A stretch of 31,193 bases of DNA from a bacterium (GCA_020349685.1 CP070698.1:1693208-1724400); one strand, 5' to 3'. Numbered from the stretch's first letter, positions 2,375-18,309 are shown. Made by a program: numbers and translations. Notes: a model not told the origin generated them from the letters alone.

Positions 2375-2677
2375 CTAGCCCTTCATTTGGTTGATCTCAT
2401 CCACATTGACCGTTTCCAGGTTCCGGAAGAGGGCCACCACGATGGCCAGCCCCAGTGTCGCCTCCGCTGCGGCGACGGTCATCACGAAGAAGACGAAAAC
2501 CTGCCCGGCGGGATTCTCGAGATAGTGGGAAAAGGCCACAAGGTTGATGTTCACGGCGCTGAGCATGAGCTCGATGGAAAGAAGGATGATGATCACGTTC
2601 CTTCTCATCAGCACACCCGTCACACCGATGACGAACAGGATGGCCGCAAGTATCAGGTAGTGAGACCGGGTGATCAT
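2375..2677 (-). CDS. nuoK: NADH-quinone oxidoreductase subunit K (100 aa)
   Basis: Three hydrophobic helices, RRN loop, both conserved Glu (SIELML, VAAAEA); ATGA overlap with the nuoJ stop. Confidence 0.96.
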
Positions 2678-3196: not shown

Positions 3197-3643
3197 CTAA
3201 AGCCGATCGTAGCGGGGGTTATCCCCCTTTGTGAGCATCTGTTCCTTGGTGACCTTGAGTTTTCCGGGGTCCGTGATCGTCAACTCGAAATCCTGACCCA
3301 TGAAAACAGCATCCACAGGGCAAACTTCCTGGCAGTAACCGCAGTAGATGCAGAGCCCCAGATCGATGACGTAGCTGTTCACCACTTTCTCGTGATCCTC
3401 ACCTTCCGATGTCTCCATGGCGATGGCCCGGGAGGGACAGATCTCGGCGCAGAGCCCGCAACCCACGCAGCGTTCCTTGCCGTCCTCGTGACGCTTGAGG
3501 ATCTGTGCCCCCCGGAACCGCTCCGGGAGGTCGTAATAGACCTCCGGATACCTGAGGGTCACCGGCTTGGAAAAAAAGTAGCGGATCGTCAAGCTGAGGC
3601 CCTTGATCAGATCTGTCTGCAGGATGTTCGTCATCAAACCCAC
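3197..3643 (-). CDS. nuoI: NADH-quinone oxidoreductase subunit I, 2x[4Fe-4S] (148 aa)
   Basis: VTLRYPE, RFRG, CVGCGLCAEICP and CIYCGYCQEVCP. Confidence 0.96.
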   Translation of the reverse strand: MGLMTNILQTDLIKGLSLTIRYFFSKPVTLRYPEVYYDLPERFRGAQILKRHEDGKERCVGCGLCAEICPSRAIAMETSEGEDHEKVVNSYVIDLGLCIYCGYCQEVCPVDAVFMGQDFELTITDPGKLKVTKEQMLTKGDNPRYDRL

Positions 3644-3659: not shown

Positions 3660-4700
3660 CTAATTGAGTTGGATCACTCTCAAAATGCCCGAGATGAAGA
3701 TGTTGAAGATGGCCAGCGGCAGAAGGACCTTCCACCCCAGCGACATGAGCTGGTCGTAACGGAGCCTGGGAAAGGTCCATCGAACCCAGACGAAGAAGAA
3801 CATGAATACGGCGACCTTGGAGAGGAACCAGACCACCGGCATGGCGTACAGGACCACGCCGGCCGGCAGCAGCCCCTCGATCATGGGCCCGATGACCGGC
3901 AGGGGCAGCCAGCCTCCGAAGAAGAGGGTCACCACGACACACGACGCGGAGATCATGGCCACGTATTCGGCCATCATGAACATGGCCCATCTCAGGCTTC
4001 CGTACTCGACAAAGTATCCGGCCACGAGCTCGCTCTCGGCTTCGGGCAGGTCAAATGGCAAGCGGTTGGTCTCGGCAAAAGCCGCCACCAGGAAAAGGAT
4101 GAAGCCGAGGAACTGGGGGATCACGAACCACTTGGGGATAAAGCCGAACCAGAGACCCTGCTGTGCCATGACGATCTTGGTCATGGACAGGGATCCCGAA
4201 TACATGAGCACCCCGATGACCGAAAGACCCAGGGAGATCTCGTAGCTGATCATCTGGGCGGAGGAGCGAAGCCCTCCAAGGAGGGCGTATTTGTTGTTCG
4301 AAGCCCAACCGGCCATGACGATCCCGAATACACCCAGCGAGGACACCGAGAGGATGTAAACCAGTCCGATGTTGATGTCGGATATCATGAGGTGCGGCCC
4401 CACCGGAATCACGGCAAAGGTTAGGAGAGCCGGCACAAAGGCCATGAGAGGGGCAGCGATGAAAAGGACCCGGTCCACATTGGTGGGGGTGATGTCCTCC
4501 TTGAGGAACAGCTTCAGACCGTCGGCAATGGGCTGGAAGATCCCAAGGGGGCCCACATACAGGGGCCCGTGGCGGTGCTGTATGTGGCCGCAGACCTTGC
4601 GTTCCACCCAGTTCATCACGGTCACTCCCCCGAGGGCCACCGTGATGATCCCGATGATCTTGAGGATGATGATAAGCAGATACAGACCGATGTTTTCCAT
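3660..4700 (-). CDS. nuoH: NADH-quinone oxidoreductase subunit H (346 aa)
   Basis: ERKV, QPIADGLKLFLKE, RSSAQMISYE, AETNRLPFDLPEAESELVAG, PRLRYDQLM. Confidence 0.97.
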   Translation of the reverse strand: MENIGLYLLIIILKIIGIITVALGGVTVMNWVERKVCGHIQHRHGPLYVGPLGIFQPIADGLKLFLKEDITPTNVDRVLFIAAPLMAFVPALLTFAVIPVGPHLMISDINIGLVYILSVSSLGVFGIVMAGWASNNKYALLGGLRSSAQMISYEISLGLSVIGVLMYSGSLSMTKIVMAQQGLWFGFIPKWFVIPQFLGFILFLVAAFAETNRLPFDLPEAESELVAGYFVEYGSLRWAMFMMAEYVAMISASCVVVTLFFGGWLPLPVIGPMIEGLLPAGVVLYAMPVVWFLSKVAVFMFFFVWVRWTFPRLRYDQLMSLGWKVLLPLAIFNIFISGILRVIQLN

Positions 4701-4723: not shown

Positions 4724-5722
4724 TCAGTACTCCATGGCGCCGGAGCGCTTGATCTCTCCCACCTTTTCCAGGAGGAAGAAGGCCTGGGTGTTTTCCGGGT
4801 TGAGCCTTATAGCCTCATTGAGGGTTTGTTCGGCCTTGTCGAGCATGCCGAGGTGGATGTAGCTGTTGCCCAGGTGATAGAGGGCGGCTGAATCCTGAGG
4901 ATCGAGTTCCCTGACTTTGCCAAAGCTCGAAGCGGCGTCCTCGTGCTGCCCTTTCCTTGCCTGTGCCACACCCCGGTGGTAGTAGGCGGAGGCGAATTTC
5001 GGCGACAGGGACAGCGCCCTGTCAAAAGCCTCGATGGTGTCGGTCATGTTCCCCTTGTGGAAGTAGACCTGCCCCAGCCAGTAGTAGGCCATGACGTATC
5101 CAGGGGAGATTTCCACCACTTTCTTGAGGGACTCGGCAGCCTCCTTGAGCATACCTTTCTGGAAATAGACGGTCCCGAGAACGTACAGCGCACGGGCAAA
5201 GCTGGGCGACCTTTCCAGGGCCTGGTTCAGCTCCTCCACCGCTGCATCCAGTTTGGCGTTCTTCTGGTGCAGCAGGGCCAGGCGGTAGTGGATCTGGGCC
5301 GTGTCCGGTATGATGCTGCGGACCTTCTTGAAGTGAAATTCGGAATCGGGAAGCAGGCCCATGGAGTAGTAGGCCATGCCCAGCCGGTAGTGGATCGCCG
5401 GCGAAGGGGGGTTTGCGGCCTCGGCCTTCTTGAAATAATCCAGTGCCAGCGAGAGCATGCCCTTGTCGTAATAGGCGACGCCCATGTAGTAATTGGTCAT
5501 CTGGAAGTCAGGAACCAGCTCGAGGGTCTCCTCCCAGCTCTTCAGGGCTTCATCGAAAAGACCCTGATGATACTGGGAGATCCCCTCCCGGTAAAGCCGC
5601 TCGGCCTTTTCCTGGTTGGAAAGGGTCTCCTGCTCCCGGGCAGAGACCTCCAACTTGTTGCCGCACTCCTTGCAGAAGCGGCTGTCATCGGGGATGATTA
5701 GGTTGCACTCCGGGCAGATCAT
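4724..5722 (-). CDS. Zinc-ribbon + tetratricopeptide-repeat protein (332 aa)
   Basis: N-terminal CPEC-x10-CKEC, then 8 consecutive 34-aa repeats of pattern Y-x-L-G-x-x-Y...A...P. Starts 1 bp after the nuoG2 stop, with GGGAGGG upstream. Confidence 0.88.
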   Translation of the reverse strand: MICPECNLIIPDDSRFCKECGNKLEVSAREQETLSNQEKAERLYREGISQYHQGLFDEALKSWEETLELVPDFQMTNYYMGVAYYDKGMLSLALDYFKKAEAANPPSPAIHYRLGMAYYSMGLLPDSEFHFKKVRSIIPDTAQIHYRLALLHQKNAKLDAAVEELNQALERSPSFARALYVLGTVYFQKGMLKEAAESLKKVVEISPGYVMAYYWLGQVYFHKGNMTDTIEAFDRALSLSPKFASAYYHRGVAQARKGQHEDAASSFGKVRELDPQDSAALYHLGNSYIHLGMLDKAEQTLNEAIRLNPENTQAFFLLEKVGEIKRSGAMEY

Positions 5723-5723
5723 C

Positions 5724-8504
5724 TTATTTCCCTCCCGAGACTCCGGGCCCTGTCTCCTCCGTGGCCCGGCGTTTCTTGTCCTGAATTTCCTGAACGGTTT
5801 TCTTTAGCCTGGTAACCTGGCTTTCACCGGCTCTTCGCTCGGCCTCAACTCTCTCTATCCTCTCGATACCGACATAGGTCAGGCCCCTTTCCCTGACGGT
5901 ATCGTACCCGACGAGGGCGTTGACGGGCACCTCCCTGAAGTGGGTCGGCACGAAGACCGTCCCGGGCATGCTCCTCTCGGTAACCTTGACCTTGACCTCT
6001 GTTATTCCCTTGAGACTGGTCAGGCGGACCCAGTCATTGGTTTCCAGTTCCAGCTCCTGGGCATCCGAGGGATGGATCTCGGCAACGGCTGTGGACGCAA
6101 CGGTATTGAGCCCTTTGGCCATGGTCGTGGTGGTTCCCGAGTGATAGAGGATCGTTCCGGGTATGAGCAGGTAGGGATAGTTGGCCGTGGCTTTTTTGGG
6201 CTCATGGAAACGGACCGGACGGGTGCGGCCCAGGCCGCTGGGAAAACGATCGTGGTGAAGGACCTCGGTACCGGGATGGTCGGGTCTGGGGCAGGGCCAG
6301 TGGATCCCGCTCTTCTCGAGACGTTCCGGGGTGATCCCCGCGTAAAAGGGGATCATGCGCGTGATCTCCCCGAGCACCTCCATGGCGGATCCGATCCCGT
6401 TGCTGTAACCCATGGCCTCCGACATTTCGGTCAGGATCCTCCAGTCGTCCCTCGTCTTGCCGGGGGAATCGATGGCCTTCCTGACCCTTTGGACCCGCCT
6501 GTCGGTATTGGTGAAGGTGCCGTTCTTTTCAGGCCCGCAGGAGGAGGGGAGAACCACGTCCGCAAAGAGAGCCGTCTCGGTGAGGAACATGTCCTGTACC
6601 ACCAGAAGATCCAGCTTTTTCATGGCCTCGATCACCCGCTCCTGATCGGGGAAAGAGGAGAGCGGGTTCTCGCCCATTATGTACATGCCCTTGAGCTTCC
6701 CCCCGGCGGCGGCTTCGATCATCCCCATGGCGTCCAGTCCAGGTTGAGAAGGAAGCTTGACACCCCACTGACCTTCGAACCAGTTTCTGATACCGTCATC
6801 GGTTACGGGCTGGTATCCGGGGAGGAACTCGGCCAGAGCCCCCATGTCCATGCACCCCTGGATGTTGTTGTACTCCGAGAGAGGGATGATCCCGGCGCCT
6901 ACCTTGCCGACGTTGCCGGTGACAAGAGCCAGGTTCGCGGCAGCTGCAACGGTATCCTCTCCCGTGTAGGGGCTGGCACCTCCCAGCGTGATGAGGATGG
7001 TGACCTTGCCGGCTGAGGCGATGGCCCTGGCCGCCTCCCTGATGGTCTCAGCCTTTATCCCGGTGACCTTCTCCATCCTTTCAGGTTCCGCACCCTTGAG
7101 AGACTCTCTGAGCTCCTCGAGACCCGTCACCCGTGACTGGCAGAACTTCTTGTTCTCAAGGCCTTCCTCCAGGATCACGGCGATTATGGAATTTAACAGC
7201 GCCACGCTGGTCCCCGGTTTGTGCTGCATCCAGGTCTGGGCGAAACGCGTGACCTTCACGCGTCTGCTGTTGGCCGCGATGAGTTTGGCCTTCCCTGACC
7301 GGACCTGCTTGAGGACCTTGAGTCCCGCGACATGGTCGTCCTCGGTGATGTTGGAGTCGATGGCAAGGATCAGGTTCGAATGCTGGAGGTCGTTCAGGGA
7401 GTTGGTCGGGGCTTCGACACCGAAGGCCTTCCTGAGGGCCTCCATCCCCGGGAAGTGGCCGAACCGGGCGATGGAGTCGACGTTGTTCGTGCCGACGACC
7501 GCCCTCATGAACTTCTGGAAAAGGTAGTTGTCCTCGTTGGTGCATCTGGCCGAAGAGATGCCGCCGAAGGCATCGGGACCTGCCTGAGAGCGGATCTTCT
7601 CAATTCCCCGCGCGATATGGTCGTAGGCCTCCTCCCAGGTCACCGGAACCAGTTCGCCATCCTGGCGCACCATCGGTTCGGTGATCCTGTCCGGGTGGTG
7701 GACGTACTCGTAGCCGAAGCGTCCCTTGCAGCAGAGGAACCCGTTGTTGTTGGAACCCTCGTCATCCACCCCCAGCACGTGGTAGATGTGGTTGCCCTTC
7801 ACCTCCAGGTGCAGAGTGCAGCCCACTCCGCAGAAGGGACAGGTCGTCCTCACCGGCGTCAACTCCCAGGCCGGCGCCGTGTGCTTGAAGATCCGGCTGT
7901 AGAGGGAGCCCACCGGACAGGCCTGCACACATTGACCGCAGAACTCGCAGTTCATCGGCTTGGCAAAGGAGGGCTCGACCACGGTGGGGAACCCGCGGCT
8001 GGCGAAATCGAATTCGCCCTCCGCCTGAACCTCGTCACATATCCTGACGCAGCGTCCGCAGAGGATGCAGCGGTTCTGGTTCATCTCGATGAGGGGGGAC
8101 AGGTGGTCGATCCTCTTTTCCACCTCGATGTGCCCGAACCTGCCGTAGTCACGGCCGTGCTCGAACACAAGGTCCTGGAGCAGGCACCGGCCCGACTGCG
8201 GGCACACGGGGCACTCCAGCGGATGGTAGGTGAGAAGAAGCTCCAGCACGGCCTCTCGGGCACGCTTGACCCGGGCCGTGTTCGAATGGACCTCCATACC
8301 ATCGGTCACAGGAACCACGCAGGAGGCGAAAAGCCTGTCCGTTCCCTCTACCTCGACCACGCACATGCGGCACGATCCGAAGGGGAGCAGGTACTTGTGA
8401 TCGCAGAACGTGGGGATGTCTATGTCCAGCTCCCGCGCTGCGTTCAGTATGGTGGTACCGCGCGGCACCTGGATTTTTTTACCGTCTATGGTGATCGTGA
8501 ACAT
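5724..8504 (-). CDS. nuoG: NuoG / formate-dehydrogenase-alpha-like Fe-S protein, copy 2 (926 aa); probably lacks a catalytic Mo/W centre
   Basis: [2Fe-2S] ligands (FCDH, GSCRMC, ASC), HPLECPVCPQSGRC, CILCGRCVRIC, CEFCGQCVQACP, CPFCGVGC..LCCKG, then a molybdopterin-oxidoreductase fold (MGENP, EKNGTFTNTDRRVQ). The metal-ligand position reads ARFGH. Confidence 0.85.
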   Translation of the reverse strand: MFTITIDGKKIQVPRGTTILNAARELDIDIPTFCDHKYLLPFGSCRMCVVEVEGTDRLFASCVVPVTDGMEVHSNTARVKRAREAVLELLLTYHPLECPVCPQSGRCLLQDLVFEHGRDYGRFGHIEVEKRIDHLSPLIEMNQNRCILCGRCVRICDEVQAEGEFDFASRGFPTVVEPSFAKPMNCEFCGQCVQACPVGSLYSRIFKHTAPAWELTPVRTTCPFCGVGCTLHLEVKGNHIYHVLGVDDEGSNNNGFLCCKGRFGYEYVHHPDRITEPMVRQDGELVPVTWEEAYDHIARGIEKIRSQAGPDAFGGISSARCTNEDNYLFQKFMRAVVGTNNVDSIARFGHFPGMEALRKAFGVEAPTNSLNDLQHSNLILAIDSNITEDDHVAGLKVLKQVRSGKAKLIAANSRRVKVTRFAQTWMQHKPGTSVALLNSIIAVILEEGLENKKFCQSRVTGLEELRESLKGAEPERMEKVTGIKAETIREAARAIASAGKVTILITLGGASPYTGEDTVAAAANLALVTGNVGKVGAGIIPLSEYNNIQGCMDMGALAEFLPGYQPVTDDGIRNWFEGQWGVKLPSQPGLDAMGMIEAAAGGKLKGMYIMGENPLSSFPDQERVIEAMKKLDLLVVQDMFLTETALFADVVLPSSCGPEKNGTFTNTDRRVQRVRKAIDSPGKTRDDWRILTEMSEAMGYSNGIGSAMEVLGEITRMIPFYAGITPERLEKSGIHWPCPRPDHPGTEVLHHDRFPSGLGRTRPVRFHEPKKATANYPYLLIPGTILYHSGTTTTMAKGLNTVASTAVAEIHPSDAQELELETNDWVRLTSLKGITEVKVKVTERSMPGTVFVPTHFREVPVNALVGYDTVRERGLTYVGIERIERVEAERRAGESQVTRLKKTVQEIQDKKRRATEETGPGVSGGK

Positions 8505-8553
8505 CTGATTCCCTCTGCAAGCTCATCAGTTCATTAGAGAGTCCGGTCAGACC

Positions 8554-11500
8554 CTACTCTTCCGTGTCGCATCGGAGGCACCGTCGCGCCTCCTTGAGTG
8601 CCATCTCCTTGGTATAACCGAACTCCACCTCGGCGAAGTCCTTGAGCCTCTTTTCCAGCTCCATGGTCGGCATGGAAGGACGGACGAGATGCATGTCCTC
8701 CTCGGTGAGCTCAATGGCCTCCACGGGTTCCGTGTTGGGGATGGTTACCGAATACTTCGGGAGCACTTCCTCGCCGTTCAGGTAAAGCTCCATGTGGGCC
8801 GCGGCCCTCTTGCCGGCGCCGATGGCATCGATGACCATCCAGGGGCCTGTCACCACATCGCCCCCGGCGAAAACGCCCTCGACATTGGTCATCTGGGTGA
8901 AGGGGTGGACGTCGATGCTGTTCCACTTGCTGATGCTCAGACCGTGACCCTCCCCGAGGAAACTTAGATCGGGCTGTCCGCTGACCGCCACGATGAGGTT
9001 GTCCAGTTCGAGCTCGAACTCCGATCCCTCCACCGGAACGGGCCTGCGGCGCCCCGAAGAGTCAGGTTCGCCCAGCTCCATGCGGATGCACTGCACACCG
9101 GTGAGCTTGCCGCCCTTTGTCAGGACCTTTACGGGAGCCACGAGCAGTTCCAGGTTGGCTCCCTCGTGGAGGGCTTCTTCGATCTCCATATCGTCGGCGG
9201 GCATCTCCTTGCGCGTTCTGCGGTAGAGGATCGTCACCTCCGACCCCATTCTCAGGGAGACCCGGGTGGCATCGATAGCCGTGTTCCCGCCACCGACGAC
9301 GGCGACCTTTTTCCCCAGGGGCACCTTTTCCCCCAGGTTGATCTTCCGAAGGAAGGCCAGGCTCTCGTACACCCCTTGGGCGTCCTCTCCGGGGATGCCC
9401 ATTTTCAGATCCACGTGGGCGCCGGTGGCGATGAAGATGGCCTCGTAATCGAGCCGCAGCTGCTCGAAGGGGACCTTGACCCCTATGGGCGTTTTCAGGT
9501 GGAACTCCGCCCCCATCTTTTCGATGGCACTGATCTCGTGCTGGAGGGTGTCCCGCGGCAGACGGTACTCAGGGATGCCCAGCGTGAGCATGCCTCCCAT
9601 GATCCTCTGGGCTTCGAAGATAACGGGGCTGAAATCGCTCTTGCCCAGGTAGTGGGCCGCCGTCAGTCCTGCCGGTCCTCCGCCGACGATGGCGACTCTC
9701 TTTCCTTTTCCGGAGATCTTTTTCACGTGGATGCTGTACTTGCCCGAGATCTCCTCCTTGGCGGCGAAATCGGCCGCGACCCTTTTGAGAGTCCTGATGC
9801 TGATGGGTTCGTCCAGGTCGCCCCGCCTGCACTTGCTCTCGCAGGGGTGGTGGCATACCCGCCCGCAGACCGCCGGGAGGGGGTTGGTCATGCGTATGAG
9901 TTCCAGGGCTTCGCTGTACTTGCCCTGGCCGATCAGTGTCACGTAGGCGGGAACGTCTGTCTCAATGGGGCAGACGTGCTGGCACGGGGAAGAGATGATC
10001 TTCTTGCAGACGACAGCCGGACATCTCTTTTCCGTGATGTGGGCCTCGTACTCTTTCCGGAAGTACCGGATGGTGGAAAGGACCGGGTTGGCGGCCGTCT
10101 GTCCAAGGCCGCAAAGGGATGTGTTCTTGATCTCCTGGCCCAGTTCCTCCAGGTTCTTGAGGTCCTCCATGTTGCCATGTCCCGAAGTGATCCTGTCCAG
10201 GATCCCGAGCATGGTCCTCGTTCCCATGCGGCACGGGACGCACTTTCCGCATGATTCGGCTGTGGTAAAGTTCAGGAAGAACCTTGCCACGTCCACCATG
10301 CAGGTGCGTTCGTCCATGATGACCACACCGCCCGACCCCATCATGGCTCCGGCCTGGATCAGAGAATCATAGTCGATGGGAGTTTCCACGATCTCGGCGG
10401 GCAGGCATCCTCCGGAGGGACCTCCGAGCTGGGCTGCCTTGAACTTGCCGCCGCCAACGATACCACCGCCTATGTCATAGATGATCTCCTTGAGCTGGGT
10501 GCCCGCGGGGACCTCGATGAGTCCGGTGTGGTTGATCTTGCCGGTGAGGGCAAAAACCTTGGTGCCTTTGGTGCCCTCGGTGCCGATCCCGGCATACCTG
10601 TCCGCACCCTTCAGTATGATGGGCGGCACACATGCGAAGGTCTCGACGTTGTTGATGTTCGAAGGCTGGCCGTAAAGACCCTTGTGCGCCGGGAAGGGGG
10701 GTCGTGACCGCGGCATTCCCCTCTTGCCCTCGATGGAGGCCATAAGGGCCGTTTCCTCACCGCAGACGAAGGCCCCGGCCCCTTCCTTGATCCTCAGATG
10801 GAAGGAGAAGTCGGTGCCGAAGATCTTCTCTCCCAGGTAGTTCCTTTCCTCGGCCTGTCCGATGGCTGTTTTGAGCCTCTCGATAGCCAGGGGGTACTCT
10901 GCCCTGCAGTAAATGTAGCCGTATTGCGCGCCGATGGCATAGGCCGCGATGACCATACCCTCGATGACGGCGTGGGGATCCCCTTCGAGAACGCTGCGGT
11001 CCATGAAGGCTCCCGGGTCGCCCTCGTCGGCGTTGCAGATCAGGTATTTGGGGTCGCCTGCGGCATTGGCGCAGAACTCCCATTTCAGGCCTGTGGGGAA
11101 ACCGCCGCCACCGCGTCCCCTCAGCCCGGATTTCTTAACCACCTCCCGGACGATGGTGGGAGACATGGTCGTCAGCGCTTTTTCCGCCGCCTGGTAACCG
11201 TCGCTGTCCAGGTAGTCCTCGATCTTGTCCGGGTCTATGAAACCGCAGCGCCGCAGGACGATGCGGTTCTGCTTCTTGAAGAAGTCCAGTTCGTCGTAGG
11301 TGGGGATACCCTTGTAGATCTTTTCCCCGTTGGTGGTTATCTGTCCGATGGCGTAATCGGTTATCGGCTTGCCCTTGATCACGTGGTTCTCGATGATCTG
11401 CTGGATCATCTCTGGTTCGACCTTGGCATAGGTGACCCTGGCCATCCCCGGCAGGGAAACGTCTACAAGGACCTCCTGGTAGCACATGCCTATGCAGCCG

Positions 11501-11634
11501 GTCTTCAGGATCGGCACATCGATGGACATCTTGCCCATCTGCTGCTCCACCTCCGCCAGTACGCCCCTTGCGCCGGACGCGAGGCCGCAGGTCCCCATTC
11601 CAATGACGATAAGTTTGTCGCTGTCGTTTCCCAT
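8554..11634 (-). CDS. HydB/NuoF-like flavoprotein fused to a GltD/NfnB/SfrB-like FAD/NADP(H) oxidoreductase domain (1026 aa)
   Basis: N-terminal thioredoxin-like Fe-S domain (GTCG..GCIGMC); NuoF core (GLRGRGGGGFP, CNADEGDPGAFMDR, GAGAFVCGEETAL, ESCGKCVPCR..SLCGLG); then PCQHVCP, CGRVCHHPCESKC, GGGPAG, GIPEYRLP, GGGNTAID, YRR, FAGGD. Confidence 0.92.
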   Translation of the reverse strand: MGNDSDKLIVIGMGTCGLASGARGVLAEVEQQMGKMSIDVPILKTGCIGMCYQEVLVDVSLPGMARVTYAKVEPEMIQQIIENHVIKGKPITDYAIGQITTNGEKIYKGIPTYDELDFFKKQNRIVLRRCGFIDPDKIEDYLDSDGYQAAEKALTTMSPTIVREVVKKSGLRGRGGGGFPTGLKWEFCANAAGDPKYLICNADEGDPGAFMDRSVLEGDPHAVIEGMVIAAYAIGAQYGYIYCRAEYPLAIERLKTAIGQAEERNYLGEKIFGTDFSFHLRIKEGAGAFVCGEETALMASIEGKRGMPRSRPPFPAHKGLYGQPSNINNVETFACVPPIILKGADRYAGIGTEGTKGTKVFALTGKINHTGLIEVPAGTQLKEIIYDIGGGIVGGGKFKAAQLGGPSGGCLPAEIVETPIDYDSLIQAGAMMGSGGVVIMDERTCMVDVARFFLNFTTAESCGKCVPCRMGTRTMLGILDRITSGHGNMEDLKNLEELGQEIKNTSLCGLGQTAANPVLSTIRYFRKEYEAHITEKRCPAVVCKKIISSPCQHVCPIETDVPAYVTLIGQGKYSEALELIRMTNPLPAVCGRVCHHPCESKCRRGDLDEPISIRTLKRVAADFAAKEEISGKYSIHVKKISGKGKRVAIVGGGPAGLTAAHYLGKSDFSPVIFEAQRIMGGMLTLGIPEYRLPRDTLQHEISAIEKMGAEFHLKTPIGVKVPFEQLRLDYEAIFIATGAHVDLKMGIPGEDAQGVYESLAFLRKINLGEKVPLGKKVAVVGGGNTAIDATRVSLRMGSEVTILYRRTRKEMPADDMEIEEALHEGANLELLVAPVKVLTKGGKLTGVQCIRMELGEPDSSGRRRPVPVEGSEFELELDNLIVAVSGQPDLSFLGEGHGLSISKWNSIDVHPFTQMTNVEGVFAGGDVVTGPWMVIDAIGAGKRAAAHMELYLNGEEVLPKYSVTIPNTEPVEAIELTEEDMHLVRPSMPTMELEKRLKDFAEVEFGYTKEMALKEARRCLRCDTEE

Positions 11635-11664
11635 CAGCTCCTGTATCCTCCTGAAGAGTGGTGC

Positions 11665-12210
11665 CTATTCTGCTCTCTTCATCGTGTCCATTTCTCGAAG
11701 GTTATCCATGATCCTCTCGGTCTTGACGGAGTCAAGCGTTCCGTGGGCATCGTTGTCGATCATGATGACGGGGGCCAGGCCGCAGGCGCCGAGGCAGGCC
11801 ACCTTTTCGAAGGAGGCGAACATGTCCTCGGTCGTTTCTCCATGGCCTATGCCGAGCATGTGCTCGAGCTTGCTGATCACCGTTTTCCCGCCCCTGACGT
11901 GACAGGCCGTCCCGCTACACGCCCGGATGATGTGCCTGCCGCGAGGGGTCAGATGGAACTGGGTATAGAAGGTCAGGACCCCGTAGACCTGGCTGCGGTA
12001 AAGCCGCATCCTGTCGGCCACAACGTTGGCCGCCTCCTCGGGCACGTAACCGTAGACCGTCTGGACATCCTGAAGGACGGGGATCAGCATCCCCTTTGTT
12101 TCCTTGAGGGAATCGATGATCCTGTGCACCGGAGCCAGGTCTATCTGCTCCTCCTCTTCCTCGATCCCGGCGTCCTGCTTGACATCCTCTAGAGTGACAT
12201 CGGCGCTCAC
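11665..12210 (-). CDS. nuoE: NuoE/HydC-like [2Fe-2S] subunit, copy 2 (about 181 aa)
   Basis: CSGTACHVRG and ACLGACGLAPV. Start placed at GTG 12210 (GGAGGT upstream, GTGA overlap with the upstream stop); the ORF track extends to 12222. Confidence 0.9.
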   Translation of the reverse strand: MSADVTLEDVKQDAGIEEEEEQIDLAPVHRIIDSLKETKGMLIPVLQDVQTVYGYVPEEAANVVADRMRLYRSQVYGVLTFYTQFHLTPRGRHIIRACSGTACHVRGGKTVISKLEHMLGIGHGETTEDMFASFEKVACLGACGLAPVIMIDNDAHGTLDSVKTERIMDNLREMDTMKRAE

Positions 12211-12674
12211 CGCCACCTCCACATGTAGTTCACCATATCGATATATCTTTCGTTCATACTCCGCAGCTGGTCGATCAGTTCCCCCACCAGGAGCTTCATA
12301 ATCTTCACGGCATCGGCGGGATACTTCTCGACGAACCTGTCGAAGTCGTTCTTGTCGAGAAGGTAGAGGGCACAGTCACCATGTGCCGAAGCGTTGGCCG
12401 AGTGGGTGCCCTCCGAGAGGAAGGTCATGATACCAGCGAACCCGCCCGCGTTCACCATGCCCAGGCTCTGGGCTTCCCCTTCCTTGGCCCTCTTGGTGAT
12501 CTTGACGACACCGCTCCCCACCAGATAGAGGTCGCCTCCCAGCGTGCCTTCGTTGAAAATGGACTCCTTGTCCTGATAGGTCCTCTTCTGCAGAGCGCCG
12601 GCCAGATATGAGAGCGCCTCCTCCGAGATTTCCTTGAGGGACTCTATCTCCTTGAGTTGGCTAATTTCGATCAT
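12207..12674 (-). CDS. Stand-alone cyclic-nucleotide-binding-fold (Crp N-terminal type) protein, no HTH (155 aa)
   Basis: IFNEG..LYLVGSGVVKI..LGMVNAGGFAG..HSANASA followed by a C-helix. ATG 12674 is preceded by GAGGAGG; the ORF track start at 12737 overlaps nuoG1. Confidence 0.85.
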   Translation of the reverse strand: MIEISQLKEIESLKEISEEALSYLAGALQKRTYQDKESIFNEGTLGGDLYLVGSGVVKITKRAKEGEAQSLGMVNAGGFAGIMTFLSEGTHSANASAHGDCALYLLDKNDFDRFVEKYPADAVKIMKLLVGELIDQLRSMNERYIDMVNYMWRWR

Positions 12675-12687
12675 TTGGTAATCCTCC

Positions 12688-15369
12688 TCAGGCTTTGACC
12701 ACACGCACGTGGACGATGGCCGTTCGTGCCTGGTCATCGGGACCTGGAATCATGAGGGCGCTCACGGGAGCGTTTTTAAAGTGGCGCGGCAAAAAGAGCA
12801 TCCCTGGGGCTATATCCTCGGAATAGCTGACAGTAACGGTAAATTCACCCTGGGTTGAGACGGCGCGGACCGAGCTTCCGTCCTGGACATCGAGACCCAT
12901 GCCCGTCTGGGGGTTCATCAAAAGGGTGGCCTGGGCAGCCAGCTGGTTCAAGGATTCCGAATACCTGGTAAAGCTGCCGGAATGGAAAAGCAGGTCTCCG
13001 AGCACCAGCGTCATGGGATATTTGGAATCGGCACTGTGCGTTTCCCAAACAGGCACAGCAGCGAAAAACTGCTTATCCTTGCTCAGGCCTTCCGGCAGAA
13101 GGTGCCTCGTACCCAGATATCCCTCGTGATAGACCTCCCGGGCGTCATCGCGGGAGAAAGGCCATTGAAGCCCGTTGTCGGCCAGGATCTGATGGTTGAT
13201 ACCGGAATAGAAGGGCACCACACTGGCTATCTCGTCCATTACCTCGGAGGAGTTCAGATAGTTCATCCCCTCTTCGCCGCAGGCGACACCAAGGTCGGAG
13301 AAGATCTTCCAATCGGGCAGGCTGTGTCCCAAGCCGTCGATGGCTTTGCTGGTTTTCTGGACGCGCCTTTCAACGTTGGTAAGCGTACCGTTCTTCTCTG
13401 CCAGGGAAGTGGCGGGAAGCACCACGTCGGCCAGTTTGGCGGTATCGGTCAGGAAGAGCTCCTGGACCACGAGGAACTCCATCTTCTTGAGCGCCTTTTC
13501 CAGGTCCTCCCCTCCCGGGAACGTTGCCAGAGGGTTGACGCCGGCGAGATAGAGGGCTTTCAGCTTCCCGGCCGCGGCGGCCTGGATCATCTCATAGGCA
13601 CTCTTCCCCCCGTCCTTGGGCACTTTGCCATTCCAGGCCTTCTCCACTCTCTTTCTTTCGGAATCAGAACTGACTGCGGCATGCCCGGGCAGCCAGTTGG
13701 GGGAAACGCCCATGTCCAGAGCGCCCTGGAAGTTGGTGCCTGACAGGATGGGGTAGAGACCGCATCCTTCCTGTCCCAGCTTTCCCGTGAGCACGAGCAG
13801 ATCGATGACCGCCTCCAGGACCTTCTCACCCCCGGCCTGCAGTACCGCTGTCTCGCCGAAGATGATGGAGGCCTTCTTGGCACCGGCGAACTCCCTGGCC
13901 GTCTGGGTGATCTCATCGACGCTGCAATCCGTTTCCCGTGCGATCTCCTTGAGGCTCTTGTCCCTGACGGAGAATTCGAGTTCGGAGAATTTGCCGTACT
14001 TCCCCAGGGTCTCGCTGTCGTAGAGCCCCTCCTCCAGGATCACCTTGATCAGCCCCTTCACCAGGGCGAGCTCTTTCCCCACCGGGACGGCGAGGGATCT
14101 CCGGGCCAATCTGGAAAGAGCTGTCTTTCCGGGGTTGACCTCCGTTACGAGCCCTCCCCGGCGGATAGCCTGTTTCACTTTCAGTCCGGAAATGGGGTTG
14201 GCCACGGTGATGTCGCAGCCGACAATGAGCAGGGCGTCGGTATAGTTGAGATCGTCCAGGGAGTTGGTGGCGGCCCGCACGCCCATCCGCTTTTCCAGGA
14301 CGGGAACGACCGTCCTGGACCAGAGGCCGGAGGGAGTATCCACGTTGTTGCTGGAAAAGACCATCCGCATGAGCTTCTGGAAAAGGTAGAGATCCTCGTT
14401 GGTGAGCCTGTCGGAAGCGATGCCGCCGACGGCTTTGCCACCGCTTTCCCGGGATATGCGCTTCATGTTCCTGGCAACCTCTTCCAGGGCGCTTTGCCAG
14501 GTCGTTCGTCTCAAGACACCATCGGCGTCCCGCACCATCGGGGCGGTGATCCTGTCAGGGTGATTGATGACGTCATAGCCGAAGAAGCCCTTGGAACAGA
14601 GGCTTCCCATGTTGAGCCCCCGCCCCTCGGCGTGCGTGACACGATACACGACGTTGTCGCGATAGTTGTAGCTGAGGGTGCAGCCGCAGCTGCAGTAGGG
14701 ACAGATAGCTTCCGATTTTTCCATCTCCCAGGTCCGGACCTTGTGTTTCATGGCCCTGGAAGTAATGGCACCAACGGGACAGGACCAGATGCAGTGGCTG
14801 CAGTATTCACAGTCCAGCGATTTGTCCATGAACGGGCCCACCACGGTGGCTGCGCCCCTGTAGGACATGCCCAGGGCGGTCACTCCCTGGATCTCTTCAC
14901 AGACCCTGACGCAGCGCTTGCACTGGATGCATCTGTTGAGGTTTCGATCGATGAGGGGGCTGATGATATGGTCCCTGAGAATCCTTTTTTTACCTTTGAA
15001 GCGCGTCTCCGCGCTGCCGTGCTTGAAAGCCAGGTCCTGGAGGGTGCACTCGCCGGAGGCATCGCATACCGTGCACTCCAGGGGATGGTTGATGAGAAGG
15101 AACTCCAGCATCATCCTCCGGGCCTTCTCGACCCTCGGCGTGTCGGTGCGGACCACCATCCCGTCGTTGACGGCGAGGGTGCAGGCGGTCTGCAGTTTCC
15201 CCATCCCTTCGACCTCCACGAGACACATCCGGCACGCCCCGAGATCACTCAGGCGCGCCTGGTGGCAGAAGGTGGGAATGTGGATCCCGAGCTTGCTGGC
15301 CGCATCGAGGACGTTGACGTGGCCGTCGACCATGATCTGCCTGCCATCTATTGTAAGCCGAACCATCAT
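12688..15369 (-). CDS. nuoG: NADH-quinone oxidoreductase subunit G, copy 1 (893 aa)
   Basis: FCHQ, GACRMC, TAC, HPLECTVCDASGEC, CIQCKRCVRVC, CEYCSHCIWSCPVGA, CPYCSCGC..LCSKG, followed by a degenerate molybdopterin-type fold; overlaps the nuoF1 stop. Confidence 0.92.
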   Translation of the reverse strand: MMVRLTIDGRQIMVDGHVNVLDAASKLGIHIPTFCHQARLSDLGACRMCLVEVEGMGKLQTACTLAVNDGMVVRTDTPRVEKARRMMLEFLLINHPLECTVCDASGECTLQDLAFKHGSAETRFKGKKRILRDHIISPLIDRNLNRCIQCKRCVRVCEEIQGVTALGMSYRGAATVVGPFMDKSLDCEYCSHCIWSCPVGAITSRAMKHKVRTWEMEKSEAICPYCSCGCTLSYNYRDNVVYRVTHAEGRGLNMGSLCSKGFFGYDVINHPDRITAPMVRDADGVLRRTTWQSALEEVARNMKRISRESGGKAVGGIASDRLTNEDLYLFQKLMRMVFSSNNVDTPSGLWSRTVVPVLEKRMGVRAATNSLDDLNYTDALLIVGCDITVANPISGLKVKQAIRRGGLVTEVNPGKTALSRLARRSLAVPVGKELALVKGLIKVILEEGLYDSETLGKYGKFSELEFSVRDKSLKEIARETDCSVDEITQTAREFAGAKKASIIFGETAVLQAGGEKVLEAVIDLLVLTGKLGQEGCGLYPILSGTNFQGALDMGVSPNWLPGHAAVSSDSERKRVEKAWNGKVPKDGGKSAYEMIQAAAAGKLKALYLAGVNPLATFPGGEDLEKALKKMEFLVVQELFLTDTAKLADVVLPATSLAEKNGTLTNVERRVQKTSKAIDGLGHSLPDWKIFSDLGVACGEEGMNYLNSSEVMDEIASVVPFYSGINHQILADNGLQWPFSRDDAREVYHEGYLGTRHLLPEGLSKDKQFFAAVPVWETHSADSKYPMTLVLGDLLFHSGSFTRYSESLNQLAAQATLLMNPQTGMGLDVQDGSSVRAVSTQGEFTVTVSYSEDIAPGMLFLPRHFKNAPVSALMIPGPDDQARTAIVHVRVVKA

Positions 15370-16652
15370 GATGCTGCCTCTGTTTCCGCCTCACCGGAAC
15401 CGCTGTTCCTCAAATAGGCAAGATATTCCCCCCGGAATTTCTTGATCGTACTCTCCACACAGCTGACGGACGCCTCGCCCAGGCCGCAGAAGGATGTGGA
15501 CCGGATCCCTTCGCATATCTCCAGGAGGAGATCCAGATCCTGCTCGCTGGCGCTGCCTTCGAGGATCTGGTCGAGGATCCTGCGCACCCAGAACAGACCC
15601 TCCCGGCAGGGCGTGCATTTACCGCACGATTCGTGCTCGAAAAACTTGATGAGCACGTGGGTGGCCTTGACCATATCGGCCGTGTCATCCAGTACGATGA
15701 CAGCCCCCGAACCCAGCATGCTCCCGGCTACGGCCAGGGAGTTGAAATCCAGCTTGACGTCCAGCTGGGACTCGTCGAGGCAGGCCGACGAGGCCCCCCC
15801 GGGGAAGGCCGCCTTGAAGGTTCTTCCTTCTCTCATGCCTCCCGCGTTATCGAAGATAAGCTCCCGCAGGGTCACCCCCATGGGAAGCTCGTAGACACCG
15901 GGGCGGGCCACATGTCCGCTCACGGAATAGAGCTTGGTTCCCGGGCATTCGGGAGTGCCGATGGAGGCGTACCAGGCGCCGCCCCTGAGGATGATGGGGG
16001 GCACCGATGCCAGGGTCTCGACGTTGTTGACGACGGTGGGAAGGTTGCTGTAGCCCACATTCACCGGGAAGGGAGGGCGGATCCTCGACTGTCCCCTTTT
16101 TCCCTCGAGAGATTCGATAAGGGCCGTTTCCTCACCGCAGACGTAAGCCCCGGCACCGCGGTGTACCGTTACGGAGAAGTTGAAACCGGAGTTGAGGATG
16201 TTGTCGCCAAGGAAGGAACGGCTCGTGGCTTCCGCGATGGCCCTTTCCAGGATCCTGGCGCCCTGGGGGTACTCTCCCCGGATGTAGATAAAGCCCTTTT
16301 CGGCGCCTGCGGCGTAACCGGCCAGCGCCATCCCCTCCAGGATGGCATGGGGGTCGTTCTCGATGAGCACCCGGTCCTTGAAGGTACCCGGCTCCCCCTC
16401 ATCGGCGTTGCAAATTATGTATTTGGGCTTCCTGCGGTCCCGGGAGGCGAAATCCCATTTCATCCCGGCTGGGAACCCGGCTCCTCCCCGCCCCCTCAAC
16501 CGTGCGATCTTGACCTCGTCGATAACTTCTTCGGGGGTCATCTCATTGAGGGCACGCGGCAGGGCCACATACCCCTCGTTGACCAGGTACGAGTCGATAT
16601 GGGCCGGGTTGGGCCTGCTTACGTTTCGTGTAAGGATCTTCAGTTCGCTCAC
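15366..16652 (-). CDS. nuoF: NADH-quinone oxidoreductase subunit F, copy 1 (428 aa)
   Basis: LRGRGGAGFPAG, CNADEGEPGTFKDR, GAGAYVCGEETAL, ESCGKCTPCREG..SFCGLG; canonical length with no extra domains. Confidence 0.96.
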   Translation of the reverse strand: MSELKILTRNVSRPNPAHIDSYLVNEGYVALPRALNEMTPEEVIDEVKIARLRGRGGAGFPAGMKWDFASRDRRKPKYIICNADEGEPGTFKDRVLIENDPHAILEGMALAGYAAGAEKGFIYIRGEYPQGARILERAIAEATSRSFLGDNILNSGFNFSVTVHRGAGAYVCGEETALIESLEGKRGQSRIRPPFPVNVGYSNLPTVVNNVETLASVPPIILRGGAWYASIGTPECPGTKLYSVSGHVARPGVYELPMGVTLRELIFDNAGGMREGRTFKAAFPGGASSACLDESQLDVKLDFNSLAVAGSMLGSGAVIVLDDTADMVKATHVLIKFFEHESCGKCTPCREGLFWVRRILDQILEGSASEQDLDLLLEICEGIRSTSFCGLGEASVSCVESTIKKFRGEYLAYLRNSGSGEAETEAAS

Positions 16653-17140
16653 GGCTTCTCTCGGTATGAGTTAAGGATCCGGCTGACCGAATCCACCGTT
16701 ACGCTCCGGTGCAGGTCGCCGTCGATCATCATGGCCGGGGCATGATCGCAGGCGCCGATGCACTCCACTTCCACGAGAGTGAAGACACGGTCAGGGGTCG
16801 TGGCGCCGACGTCGATGCCGAGCTCTCTTTTGAGCCCCTGAAGGACCTCCTCGGCCCCGTTGACGTGGCAGCTGAGGTTGCGGCAAACCTGAACCAGGTG
16901 CCTGCCGACCGGCTCCGTGAAAAGCATGGTGTAGTAGGTCGCGACCTCGAAGGTCCGGACGTGGGGCACCCCGATGAATTCTGCCACAAAGGTCAGGGCC
17001 TGTTCGGAAAGGTGTCCCTGCGCCCCCTGCACGTAATGCAGCAGAGGAAGGATAGCTGAGGCAGGTTCCTGGTAGCGGGCCCGAATGTTCTCCATGTCAG
17101 AGAACTCCTTGGCGCTGAAGACCTCCGTGCTTTTCATCAT
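16649..17140 (-). CDS. nuoE: NADH-quinone oxidoreductase subunit E, copy 1 (163 aa)
   Basis: VCRNLSC and ECIGACDHAP; 4-bp overlaps with nuoD and nuoF1. Confidence 0.95.
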   Translation of the reverse strand: MMKSTEVFSAKEFSDMENIRARYQEPASAILPLLHYVQGAQGHLSEQALTFVAEFIGVPHVRTFEVATYYTMLFTEPVGRHLVQVCRNLSCHVNGAEEVLQGLKRELGIDVGATTPDRVFTLVEVECIGACDHAPAMMIDGDLHRSVTVDSVSRILNSYREKP

Positions 17141-18309
17141 CGGTCGATCTCCCCCAGCACGATGTCCAGGCTTCCGATAATGGCGACGACGTCCGCCAGC
17201 ATGTTCCCCTTTGCCATCGTCAGCAGGGACTGAAGGTTAATGAATGACGGGGGGCGGATCCGGAGCCTGTACGGTTTGGGGCTGCCATCGCTCACGATGT
17301 AGAATCCGATCTCGCCCTTGGGGGCCTCGATGGTGGAATAAACCTCGCCCCTGGGGGGAGCCAGACCCTCTACCACAAGCTTGAAATGGTGGATCATGGC
17401 TTCTATGGAACCCTCCAGGCGCTCCTTGTCAGGCATGACGAACTTGGCCGAGCGCTCGATGAAGGGACCTTCGGGCATGCCCTCGATGAGCTGCCGCAGC
17501 ATCCTGGAGCTCTGACGCATCTCCCTGATCCTCACCATGTACCGGGCGTAGACGTCGCCTTCCTCAAGAACGGGGACCATGAAATCGAGTTCCCCGTAAA
17601 CCTCGTAGGGTTCGTCCCTCCTGATATCCCAGTCCACCCCGGACGCCCTCAAGGCCGGGCCTGAGAGACCGAGGCTCAGGGCGTCCTCCCGGCTGATGAA
17701 ACCGACATTCTTCGTGCGCCTGAGCCAGATGCGGTTCTTGCTCAGAAGCCTCTCGTATTCGTTGATCTTGACGTCGAACTTGTCCAGGAAGGTTTTGATC
17801 TTGCCGGTGAAACCGGGGGTCATGTCCCTGACCACCCCGCCAGGGCGGAAATAGGTGGGCATCATCCGGGTGCCGGCGATCTCCTCGATGAGGTCCAGGA
17901 TGTCCTCCCGTTCCCTCAGGCCGTACATCAGGACGGTGACGGCACCGATATCAGCCGCGTGGGTTCCGAGCCAAAGGAGATGGCTCATGATCCTGGTCAG
18001 CTCGGCAATGGTGGTCCTTATGTACTGAGCCCTTCTGGGAACCTCGATGCCCAGGAGCTTTTCCACCGCCAGGATGTAGGCCAGGTTGTTGCTCCCGGAG
18101 GCGAGGTAGTCCAATCTGTCCGTAAGGGGAAGGACCTGCAGATATTTTTTGCTCTCGGAAAGCTTCTCGACGCCCCTGTGCAGATAACCGATATCCGGCA
18201 CCGCATTGACGACCACCTCACCGTCCAGCTCCAGAATGATCCGGAGAACCCCGTGTGTGGAGGGGTGGTGGGGACCCATGTTGATTGTCATGATCTCCTG
18301 CCTGGCCAC
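17137..18309 (-). CDS. nuoD: NADH-quinone oxidoreductase subunit D (390 aa)
   Basis: NMGPHHPSTHGVLR, GYLHRGVEK, RLDY, EAPKGE, terminal GSLDIVLGEIDR; no NiFe CxxC motifs. Confidence 0.97.
   Translation of the reverse strand: MARQEIMTINMGPHHPSTHGVLRIILELDGEVVVNAVPDIGYLHRGVEKLSESKKYLQVLPLTDRLDYLASGSNNLAYILAVEKLLGIEVPRRAQYIRTTIAELTRIMSHLLWLGTHAADIGAVTVLMYGLREREDILDLIEEIAGTRMMPTYFRPGGVVRDMTPGFTGKIKTFLDKFDVKINEYERLLSKNRIWLRRTKNVGFISREDALSLGLSGPALRASGVDWDIRRDEPYEVYGELDFMVPVLEEGDVYARYMVRIREMRQSSRMLRQLIEGMPEGPFIERSAKFVMPDKERLEGSIEAMIHHFKLVVEGLAPPRGEVYSTIEAPKGEIGFYIVSDGSPKPYRLRIRPPSFINLQSLLTMAKGNMLADVVAIIGSLDIVLGEIDR

Follow-up and report, generated by a model that had tools for sequence, protein, structure and literature searches.

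Within the stretch of bacterial DNA analysed here (GCA_020349685.1 CP070698.1:1693208-1724400; 31,193 nt, hereafter the window, with all positions referring to the whole stretch), a single nuo operon for respiratory complex I contains two differing NuoEFG-type gene trios beside one set of core genes. Trio 1 (E1-F1-G1) is canonical. Trio 2 (E2-F2-G2) is of the bifurcating HydBC/Bfu type and carries an NADPH-binding GltD domain in addition. An earlier note on this DNA had described two distinct electron-input modules and two accessory genes between nuoD and nuoH, and that layout is borne out: open reading frames (ORFs), Pfam and NCBIfam place all the named genes on the minus strand, co-directional, with the quinone-module (Q-module) and membrane-arm genes in single copy within the window. 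Our tentative reading is that trio 2 descends from complex I, is co-expressed with it and forms a self-contained enzyme linked to both NADH and NADPH. The two trios and the two accessory genes are as follows.

16649-17140, minus strand: E1, canonical NuoE, 163 aa (NCBIfam)
15366-16652, minus strand: F1, canonical NuoF, 428 aa (NCBIfam)
12688-15369, minus strand: G1, NuoG, 893 aa (NCBIfam)
12207-12674, minus strand: cNMP-fold gene, 155 aa (Pfam PF00027)
11665-12222, minus strand: E2, NuoE/HydC(BfuC)-like [2Fe-2S] subunit, 185 aa (Pfam 2Fe-2S_thioredx)
8554-11634, minus strand: F2, NuoF core plus GltD-like half, 1026 aa (Pfam Complex1_51K, NADH_4Fe-4S, Fer4_20, Pyr_redox_2)
5724-8504, minus strand: G2, NuoG/FdhA-like Fe-S subunit, 926 aa (NCBIfam scores, FdsA alignment)
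4724-5722, minus strand: Zn-ribbon/TPR gene, 332 aa (Pfam TPR_1)

All three subunits of trio 1 exceeded the NCBIfam cut-offs: E1 scored 159.7 against a cut-off of 141 for NF005722 and 152 against 142.4 for TIGR01958, F1 580.5 against 558.65 for TIGR01959, and G1 471.2 against 470.05 for the NuoG family TIGR01973. F1 is a plain NuoF that lacks an N-terminal thioredoxin-like domain, a His/Cys linker and a C-terminal extension, and its identity to the NuoF encoded by a plasmid-borne rhizobial nuo operon is 55%. Reference Nuo sequences were taken from annotated records of two rhizobial nuo operons (L081 and L082) and that of E. coli (L083). F1 fell in a clade with the E. coli and rhizobial NuoF (ultrafast bootstrap/SH-aLRT support 100/98 in a 43-row tree; paired values below are in this order), E1 grouped with a rhizobial nuo2 NuoE (99/93, 32 rows) and G1 grouped weakly with rhizobial NuoG (90/72, 34 rows). 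G1 has the full-length FdhA-like fold, with Trp-Ser and Leu, and no Cys, His or Arg, in the columns of the formate dehydrogenase (FDH) active site; its orthologue P0302 is 73% identical. Judged by these scores and trees, trio 1 is a canonical complex I N-module.

F2 is a different kind of protein. Its residues 1-548 resemble a HydB/BfuB-like NADH/FMN subunit, and residues 549-1026 a GltD/NfnB-like domain with 2x[4Fe-4S], FAD and NADPH sites. When residues 10-548 were compared with the PDB, the scores were 745.8 bits for 7t2r_B, 715 for the NfnB chain 9n5u_B, 711 for 9bov_B and 705 for 8oh5_B; the bifurcating HydB/NfnB/StnB chains, 7q4v_B included, spanned 745-695 bits. Thermus Nqo1 reached 404.6 bits over the same region, far below the bifurcating B subunits. 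A thioredoxin-like domain at the N-terminus (residues 9-100) aligns with that of 7t2r_B, 9n5u_B, 9bov_B and 8oh5_B, including the GxCG...TGCIGMC motif. Passages of PMC12018979 name a linker site of one His and three Cys, the Zn/B2 site, as a hallmark of Bfu B subunits. In F2, C445 (within TCMVD), H532, C538 and C543 align with this site ('AHIxDKxCPAxxC') in the four solved B subunits; these residues are invariant in 15 fusion homologues and none of them is found in F1. The FMN/NADH loops, the N3 cysteines, the eight cysteines of the GltD domain and both Rossmann motifs are likewise intact in F2 and invariant in the same 15 homologues. F2 scored below the NCBIfam equivalog cut-offs. Its orthologues occur in 20 further clusters at 73-92% identity, after which the next identity drops to 55%.

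The matches to HydB, NfnB and StnB stop at residue 548, and F2 has no C-terminal ferredoxin-like domain (two CX2CX2CX3CP motifs). Residues 549-1023 match the GltD-like parts of 9bov_A (102-567, 405.8 bits), 9n5u_A and 8oh5_C, and this half of the protein also matches NfnB (4ylf_B and 5jca_L). By these alignments, the ferredoxin-like domain of F2 is replaced by a GltD/NfnB-like FAD/NADPH domain. The replaced domain is the proposed ferredoxin site of Stn, Nfn and Hyd enzymes in passages of PMC10482914 and PMC12018979, and with GltD in its place the proposed site is therefore missing from F2.

The partners of F2 are also set apart from their canonical counterparts. E2 has a clear thioredoxin-like [2Fe-2S] domain (Pfam 2Fe-2S_thioredx, E=1.9e-48) and an acidic N-terminal extension; its TIGR01958 score of 128 lies under the 142.4 cut-off, and the 32-row tree did not settle its placement among Bfu-type E subunits. 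G2 fell short of two family cut-offs, with 651.8 against 666.25 for Fdh-alpha (TIGR01591) and 432.1 against 470.05 for NuoG (TIGR01973). It aligned end to end with Rhodobacter-type FdsA (608.6 bits) and retains the Fe-S motifs together with a large part of the sequence of the pterin domain. At the active-site columns, G2 has Gly349 for Cys/selenocysteine (Sec), keeps His350, and has Ser543 for the Arg of PLRGQNN. We take Gly349 to be the equivalent of FdsA Cys386, and the two replaced residues to be the Mo-ligand Cys/Sec and the active-site Arg. P0279, the closest representative at 66% identity, likewise has G-H-S at these columns. An intact C/U-H plus R active site was found in 13 of the 24 G subunits from our loci, and in neither G2 nor G1. 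In a set made up of G1, G2 and the 150 best cluster representatives, Cys-His-Arg was present in 42/152, possibly an undercount given that Sec forms are truncated in such a library. G2 nevertheless keeps 149 of 180 FDH-conserved columns, against 130 in G1 and 118, 109 and 70 in known nuo-operon G subunits. At most 11 columns qualified as signatures common to nuo-operon G subunits and not to FDHs, and known nuo G subunits were found without them too. By its alignments, G2 is an FdhA-like Fe-S subunit with a degenerate FDH active site. It ends in a charged, probably helical tail of ~58 aa (residues ~869-926, window 5724-5900) that is not present in G1 or in FDH relatives, where the alignments end near residue 865; the tail of P0279 extends 27 residues past column 866. 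By its domains, trio 2 is a HydBC/Bfu-type module with one site for NADH/FMN, another for NADPH/FAD, and a long Fe-S wire that lacks a catalytic end.

The trios stand among the core genes of complex I, of which nuoA-M are present in one copy each within the window; nuoN would lie past the left window edge.

19378-19851, minus strand: nuoA; nuoA-D make up the operon start and part of the Q-module (Pfam Oxidored_q4/q6, Complex1_30kDa and Complex1_49kDa cover nuoA-D)
18827-19381, minus strand: nuoB (Pfam, within the nuoA-D set)
18321-18965, minus strand: nuoC (Pfam, within the nuoA-D set)
17137-18309, minus strand: nuoD (Pfam, within the nuoA-D set)
3660-4700, minus strand: nuoH; nuoH-M encode the membrane arm and NuoI (Pfam NADHdh/Fer4/Oxidored_q3/Oxidored_q2/Proton_antipo_M/Oxidored_q5_N cover nuoH-M)
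3197-3643, minus strand: nuoI (Pfam, within the nuoH-M set)
2674-3186, minus strand: nuoJ (Pfam, within the nuoH-M set)
2375-2677, minus strand: nuoK (Pfam, within the nuoH-M set)
429-2363, minus strand: nuoL (Pfam, within the nuoH-M set)
2-352, minus strand: nuoM, start only (Pfam, within the nuoH-M set)

The ORF coordinates give 4-nt overlaps for D/E1, E1/F1 and F1/G1, a gap of 13 nt between G1 and the cNMP-fold gene, and an overlap of 16 nt between the latter and E2. Gaps of 30 nt (E2 to F2), 49 nt (F2 to G2), 1 nt (G2 to TPR) and 23 nt (TPR to nuoH) follow, so that the largest gap, 49 nt, agrees with the earlier description of overlaps or gaps under 50 bp. Upstream of nuoA there is a 260-nt intergenic region and then a divergent aminotransferase gene (20112-21392). 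The longest nuoC ORF begins with a GTG at 18965 and overlaps nuoB by 139 nt; its Pfam domain begins only at residue 89, and the true start probably lies further downstream.

Several observations concern the operon sequence and the block 4724-12674 within it. Between positions 3000 and 20500 we counted 3 promoter-like sites against 4.7 expected from shuffled sequence and 16 terminator-like sites against 14.5, an excess in neither case, and no such site of either kind lies within any minus-strand intergenic gap. GC content is even across the region (0.57-0.62), with no compositional break marking 4724-12674, and direct or inverted repeats flanking the block amount to short low-identity matches. 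The proposal that the block is a cassette inserted between nuoG1 and nuoH is weakened by the lack of a GC break and of flanking repeats, and by the F2 core being nearest to a nuo-operon F (see below). Paralogous subunits of the two trios are 35% (E1/E2), 47% (F1/F2 core) and 40% (G1/G2, over 884 aa) identical; at these identities the trios are old paralogues and not recent duplicates.

To see which of these genes stay together in other assemblies, we compared the longest-contig values in the match lists of F2, the cNMP-fold protein and NuoH, and took equal values as a sign of a shared contig. Such a match is positive evidence but indirect, and a missing one carries no meaning (the window's own NuoH cluster is listed at 2743 nt and the F2 list gives ~2.03 Mb). 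Orthologues of the cNMP-fold protein and NuoH apparently lie on the same contig in six cases (2,159,603; 120,561; 2,777,263; 48,387; 111,156 and 1,587 nt), and orthologues of the cNMP-fold protein and F2 in two (21,007 and 102,548 nt). F2 orthologues of 80-92% identity appear, on this indirect evidence, to share contigs with cNMP or NuoH orthologues elsewhere, and an isolated misassembly, which the earlier note had named as a ground for refutation, is therefore an unlikely source of the arrangement. The shortest contig is informative in another way: a 111-aa C-terminal piece of the cNMP-fold protein and a 339-aa NuoH fit on 1,587 nt only if they are adjacent, which hints that relatives without trio 2 exist.

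The cNMP-fold protein itself matches Pfam PF00027 with E=1.9e-17 (63.4 bits). Its ORF extends to 12737; we placed the start at the second ATG, at 12674, because 29 of 38 relatives are exactly 155 aa long. The family comprises 38 clusters of 53-93% identity and has an invariant C-terminal tail, ..YIDMVNYMWRWR. An AlphaFold2 (AF2) model (pLDDT 89.4) predicts a cyclic-nucleotide-binding (CNB) beta-roll followed by a long C-terminal helix, and Foldseek matched the model to the CNB domains of CRP, PKA and PKG with query TM-scores of 0.6-0.83. At the phosphate-binding cassette, the family consensus G-I-M-T-F-L...H-S-A carries Ile where FGE[LIV]A...R[ST]A, which we take to be the motif of cyclic-nucleotide receptors, has Glu, and an invariant His where that motif has Arg. 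Pfam detected no helix-turn-helix or other output domain within the 155 aa. The protein thus has the CNB fold in common with CRP/FNR-type receptors but lacks both the cassette Glu/Arg, as we assume that motif to read, and an output domain. In the ESM Atlas it had generic cNMP neighbours only.

A homologue of this protein with 35% identity and a related tail was found in a Nitrospirae metagenome-assembled genome (MAG; locus L020), where it follows the G of a soluble formate dehydrogenase of the Bfu type. That locus (9413-17160) encodes E, F, a 23S-rRNA-IVP-family protein, a Sec-containing FdhA split at TGA, the 152-aa cNMP-fold protein and a formate-tetrahydrofolate (THF) ligase; the cassette Glu is kept in this cNMP-fold protein, but His again stands at the Arg position. 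The apparent contig sharing with NuoH in six cases and the homologue after a Bfu-type FDH G subunit are the reasons why the cNMP-fold protein, which had been counted as part of a module-2 cassette, seems to belong instead to NuoEFG-like modules generally and to the nuo/EFG core here. Another small protein of a ligand-sensor fold stands in the rhizobial plasmid nuo operons that supplied the nearest annotated relatives of E1 and F1: a CBS-domain gene beside nuoI/nuoH (12928-13368 in L081, 12940-13380 in L082). The second accessory gene, which starts 1 nt past the G2 stop, encodes a protein with an N-terminal CxxC..CxxC Zn-ribbon and about 8 TPRs (Pfam TPR_1, E=1.5e-58, 6 stretches); its ESM Atlas neighbours were generic TPR proteins only. 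The roles of 'switch or assembly factor' proposed for the cNMP-fold and TPR proteins are guesses.

How common are trios like the second one, and where do they occur? Fusions of F and GltD are widespread, with 8000 scored matches and many phyla among the names given. A scan of genome contigs with generic NuoF patterns yielded 80 loci among the matches listed, all at or below 61% identity. Ten of these 80 loci contain a single-ORF F-GltD fusion, and the fetched flanks of none of the ten contain nuoA-D or nuoH-K. The order known from Stn, E - F - (2Fe2S-GltD-G), was seen in 16 of the 80 and differs from that of the window. Only one listed locus, L018 of a Geobacteraceae MAG, is a nuo operon, and the one EFG set that it has is of the Bfu type, with an F of 594 aa. 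A full-length G stands beside the fusion in four loci, from Dehalococcoidia (L003), Desulfobacteraceae (L004), Anaerolineales (L075) and Desulfobacterales (L071). It is a true FDH in three of them, with Cys in L003 and L004 and Sec in L075, and non-catalytic in L071. The L071 locus (5892-13069, from a Desulfobacterales MAG) encodes MetF (methylene-THF reductase family) directly upstream of the non-catalytic FdhA-like G, then E and the F-GltD fusion, and may represent a Bfu-type methylene-THF reductase module linked to NAD(P)H.

Because related trios stand alone in other phyla, away from nuo genes, E-F/GltD-G trios behave as plug-in enzyme modules, with the third substrate encoded within G or next to it. 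In close relatives, linkage of the block to nuo genes, a point that the earlier note had named among its refuting conditions, rests on the indirect contig-length matches; none of the ten fusion loci among the 80 listed is in a nuo operon. A search of a plasmid collection with F2 gave one record of 625 that covers >80% of the query, and this was a Stn-type locus and not a nuo operon. In a literature search of full texts, with subscription journals mostly outside it, no nuo operon with both canonical and Bfu-type EFG sets was described; nor, with supplements (e.g. that of PMC9304861) outside the search, was a Bfu B subunit in a nuo operon with GltD replacing the ferredoxin domain.

The phylogenetic trees give a partial view of the descent of trio 2. 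In the 43-row F tree, the F2 clade fell within the Bfu clade, away from the other fusions and as sister to the nuo-operon F of L018 (98/97), and the same grouping was recovered with 95 rows (SH-aLRT 97) and with 38 rows (95/98). The log-likelihood falls by 36 units when F2 is forced into the main fusion clade, a placement that the approximately unbiased (AU) test does not reject (p=0.096). The GltD half of F2 grouped with the GltD domains of other fusions (SH-aLRT 99, quick tree of 10 rows). Across the NuoF-core trees, F-GltD fusions appeared in at least four separate places with their GltD halves mostly together (L003-L075, P0023-P0120), and this pattern suggests repeated domain exchange or loss in the family. 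The position of G2 shifted with sampling and model: G1 and G2 were sisters in one tree (SH-aLRT 90), a quick tree of 61 rows put G2 in a non-catalytic group next to Geobacteraceae-type NuoG (SH-aLRT 93), the careful 34-row tree did not fix its relation, and a grouping of G2 with the FDH clade was not rejected (AU p=0.319). Mainly because of the F tree, we think that trio 2 is probably the descendant of a Geobacter-type complex I head that gained a GltD domain. With the F2 core nearest, among the relatives sampled, to a nuo-operon F, trio 2 may therefore stem from a complex I head and need not be foreign. Descent in situ from a displaced head would explain the position in the operon whether the trio docks on complex I or is soluble; the position therefore does not decide between these two readings.

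Among characterized enzymes, the closest in composition are the electron-bifurcating transhydrogenases StnABC and NfnABC (Nfn-Bfu), the structures of which have been solved (passages of PMC10482914 and PMC12018979). Like trio 2, these complexes (8oh5, 9bov, 9n5u) combine a NuoE-like [2Fe-2S] subunit, a HydB-like subunit, a GltD/NfnB-like FAD/NADPH domain and a non-catalytic NuoG/FdhF-like domain, and PMC10482914 (in part) describes an FdhF-like domain that is inactive and a HydBC-like core fed by a GltD domain. Unlike in trio 2, their GltD domain is inserted in the NuoG-like subunit, whereas here it is on the C-terminus of the HydB-like subunit, at the place of the ferredoxin-like domain, and the genes are inside a nuo operon. 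The other close comparison is with predicted complexes: a 'Nuo-Bfu' complex I of Geobacter type was predicted, a group of 51 sequences (PMC9304861, in part), and Bfu-type heads are likewise predicted for the NUO-2 clusters of Nitrospina and Kuenenia (PMC3578206, in part). These share with our locus a Bfu-type E/F/G set in the middle of a nuo cluster, an F core that is sister to that of F2 in the case of L018, and a non-catalytic FdhA-like G. They differ in that the Bfu head is their only one and keeps the ferredoxin-like C-terminal domain (the L018 F has 594 aa), whereas here the canonical NuoEFG is present too and F2 carries GltD in that domain's place.

The stand-alone E - F/GltD - G operons (L003, L004, L075, L071) have the same three genes, with fusions of ~1020-1060 aa and GltD halves that group with that of F2, but no nuo genes are near them, G is a true FDH in three of the four with a full-length G, and the F cores fall elsewhere in the tree. 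G2 matches FdsA of the NAD-dependent formate dehydrogenase FdsGBA (6tg9, 9wxb) from end to end with Fe-S motifs kept; it differs by Gly and Ser at the Cys and Arg sites and by a flavoprotein partner that has extra domains. SfrAB of Geobacter presumably resembles trio 2 in combining a GltD-like NADPH/FAD unit with a non-catalytic FdhA-like Fe-S subunit, and is assumed to lack the HydBC-like NADH/FMN core. SfrB-like proteins are mentioned as NADPH-oxidising partners in passages of PMC3543383.

If trio 2 is a self-contained enzyme, the whole cluster would be one nuo operon in which E1-F1-G1 is the constitutive NADH-input head. E2-F2-G2, derived from HydBC/Bfu-type heads as in Geobacteraceae-type nuo operons, would work as a cytoplasmic or peripheral, presumably soluble Fe-S flavoenzyme, possibly together with the TPR protein. 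It would connect the NADH pool, at the FMN site of F2, with the NADPH pool, at the FAD site of the GltD half, and so be related to the enzymes Stn/NfnABC and SfrAB; the substrates and the direction of electron flow are our inference. G2, as an Fe-S wire with a dead active site, would be a scaffold and a contact for a third, one-electron partner, for example ferredoxin. By being transcribed together with complex I, the trio would make the supply of NADPH depend on the oxidation of NADH. The domain inventory of trio 2, which is that of the soluble Stn/NfnABC enzymes, is consistent with this, and related trios stand alone (none of the ten fusions among the 80 loci listed has nuo genes). Complex I has one NuoG docking site, and a complete canonical head is already encoded, with E1, F1 and G1 passing cut-offs that F2 and G2 fail. 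Trio 2 also looks functional, given invariant cofactor motifs and orthologues in 20 clusters, and the 1,587-nt contig with the cNMP-fold gene and nuoH suggests that the cassette may be dispensable.

Other observations weigh against this reading. Without a ferredoxin-like domain in F2, trio 2 cannot be a straightforward Stn/Nfn enzyme, and as a soluble enzyme it would have only two obvious substrate sites, leaving the Fe-S wire of G2 with no evident end. The F2 core is sister to the nuo-operon F of L018 and not to the main soluble fusions, which would fit a docking head, and the nearest relatives of G2 are non-catalytic, next to Geobacteraceae-type NuoG in the quick tree. The trio stands mid-operon, after nuoG1 and before nuoH, and none of the gaps exceeds 49 nt or contains a terminator-like site. 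Any localisation, activity or partner given here for trio 2 is a prediction.

These points bring up the alternative that E2-F2-G2 replaces E1-F1-G1 on the same NuoBCDI/membrane core and so makes a second form of complex I, which we consider possible though on balance unlikely. By Bfu wiring, NADH would be oxidised at FMN, the low-potential branch would end at the GltD FAD and NADP(H) in place of ferredoxin, and the G2 wire would lead to NuoI and menaquinone. Such a head could burn both NADH and NADPH on menaquinone, or split electrons from NADH between menaquinone (downhill) and NADP+ (uphill), in the latter mode making NADPH at the expense of proton pumping; NADP(H) on the low-potential and menaquinone on the high-potential branch would be thermodynamically sensible, by inference only. 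The L018 operon has no other EFG set, so that its F, the sister of F2, must dock, and Bfu-type complex I heads have been predicted in other organisms (PMC9304861 and PMC3578206, in part). The tight spacing within the operon also fits a second head, as do the missing catalytic end of G2 and the neighbourhood: other F-GltD trios encode the third partner in or next to G, and here the neighbours are nuo genes. Yet the same transcript-like unit already encodes a complete canonical head, and neither F2 with the soluble fusions (p=0.096) nor G2 with the FDH clade (p=0.319) is rejected. The GltD half of F2 sides with the other F-GltD fusions, and G2 keeps more FDH columns (149/180) than G1 (130) or the nuo G subunits (118, 109 and 70). 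We also know of no precedent for two heads that share one complex I core, which counts against the idea. It is doubtful, then, that the operon encodes two interchangeable heads on one core, acting as a quinone-driven bifurcating transhydrogenase or an NADH plus NADPH burner; if it does, the cNMP-fold and TPR proteins might choose the head.

Two further explanations seem improbable to us. Trio 2 might be bound to complex I in a super-assembly, through G1-G2 contacts resembling those in dimers of FdhA-like subunits or through the TPR protein, and pass NADPH electrons into module 1, as the earlier note had also envisaged. FdhF-like domains mediate oligomerisation in StnABC (PMC10482914, in part), G1 and G2 are paralogues with 40% identity over 884 aa, and a gene for a TPR scaffold begins 1 nt after G2. 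NADPH electrons could, however, reach NAD+ at the F2 FMN with no physical link to module 1, and no example of such a super-assembly is known to us, which makes it an outside chance. Slimmer still is the prospect that trio 2 serves another membrane core encoded elsewhere, such as an 11-subunit nuo cluster without EFG. The window is 31 kb of a ~2.03-Mb contig, and genomes with a pair of complex I sets, canonical and Bfu-type, are described, with scattered NUO-2 genes in Nitrospina gracilis (PMC3578206, in part); the window itself gives no sign of a second core, though, and scattered heads are usually not found inside the operon of another complex.

Other genes in the window also concern redox metabolism. 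A Rex-type redox-sensing repressor gene (Put_DNA-bind_N plus CoA_binding) lies at 29720-30475 on the plus strand, 10 kb from the operon start. The exact Rex operator pattern gave 0 matches. An imperfect palindrome, TTGTCTATAGATTTCACAA, stands upstream of nuoA at 19922-19940 with 2 mismatches to what we take to be the Rex consensus (1 match against 0.04 expected, with the spacer length picked after the site was seen), and as a Rex site it is a lead only. A cluster on the plus strand (23443-29826) encodes a Rieske protein (25637-26080), a cytochrome b (26077-26787) and three multihaem cytochromes c (23443-24591, 26747-28468 and 28465-29826), and resembles the bc-like operons with multihaem cytochromes of Nitrospina, Kuenenia and Methylomirabilis (PMC3578206, in part). 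Six ORFs of 101-295 aa had no Pfam match at E<=1e-5 (within 21450-23585 on the minus strand, 24588-25475 on the plus strand and 30541-31158 on the minus strand).

To date, complex I heads of the Bfu type are known only as predictions from the gene order of Geobacter, Nitrospina and Kuenenia. In the locus described here, one set of core genes is accompanied by both a canonical head and one of the Bfu type, and F2 presents a clean domain swap, an NADPH/FAD domain for a ferredoxin-type one, precisely at the linker through which the low-potential branch exits the bifurcating core. The small cNMP-fold protein, with its invariant tail and its occurrence in two phyla next to NuoEFG-like modules, could be a new accessory subunit. 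The pairing of heads and the domain swap make two questions testable in one organism: whether a complex I core can work with different heads, and whether the 'ferredoxin branch' of Bfu enzymes can be redirected to NADP+. Were trio 2 a soluble enzyme and no more, it would still represent a new layout in the Stn/Nfn family and a displaced complex I head that has been re-used.

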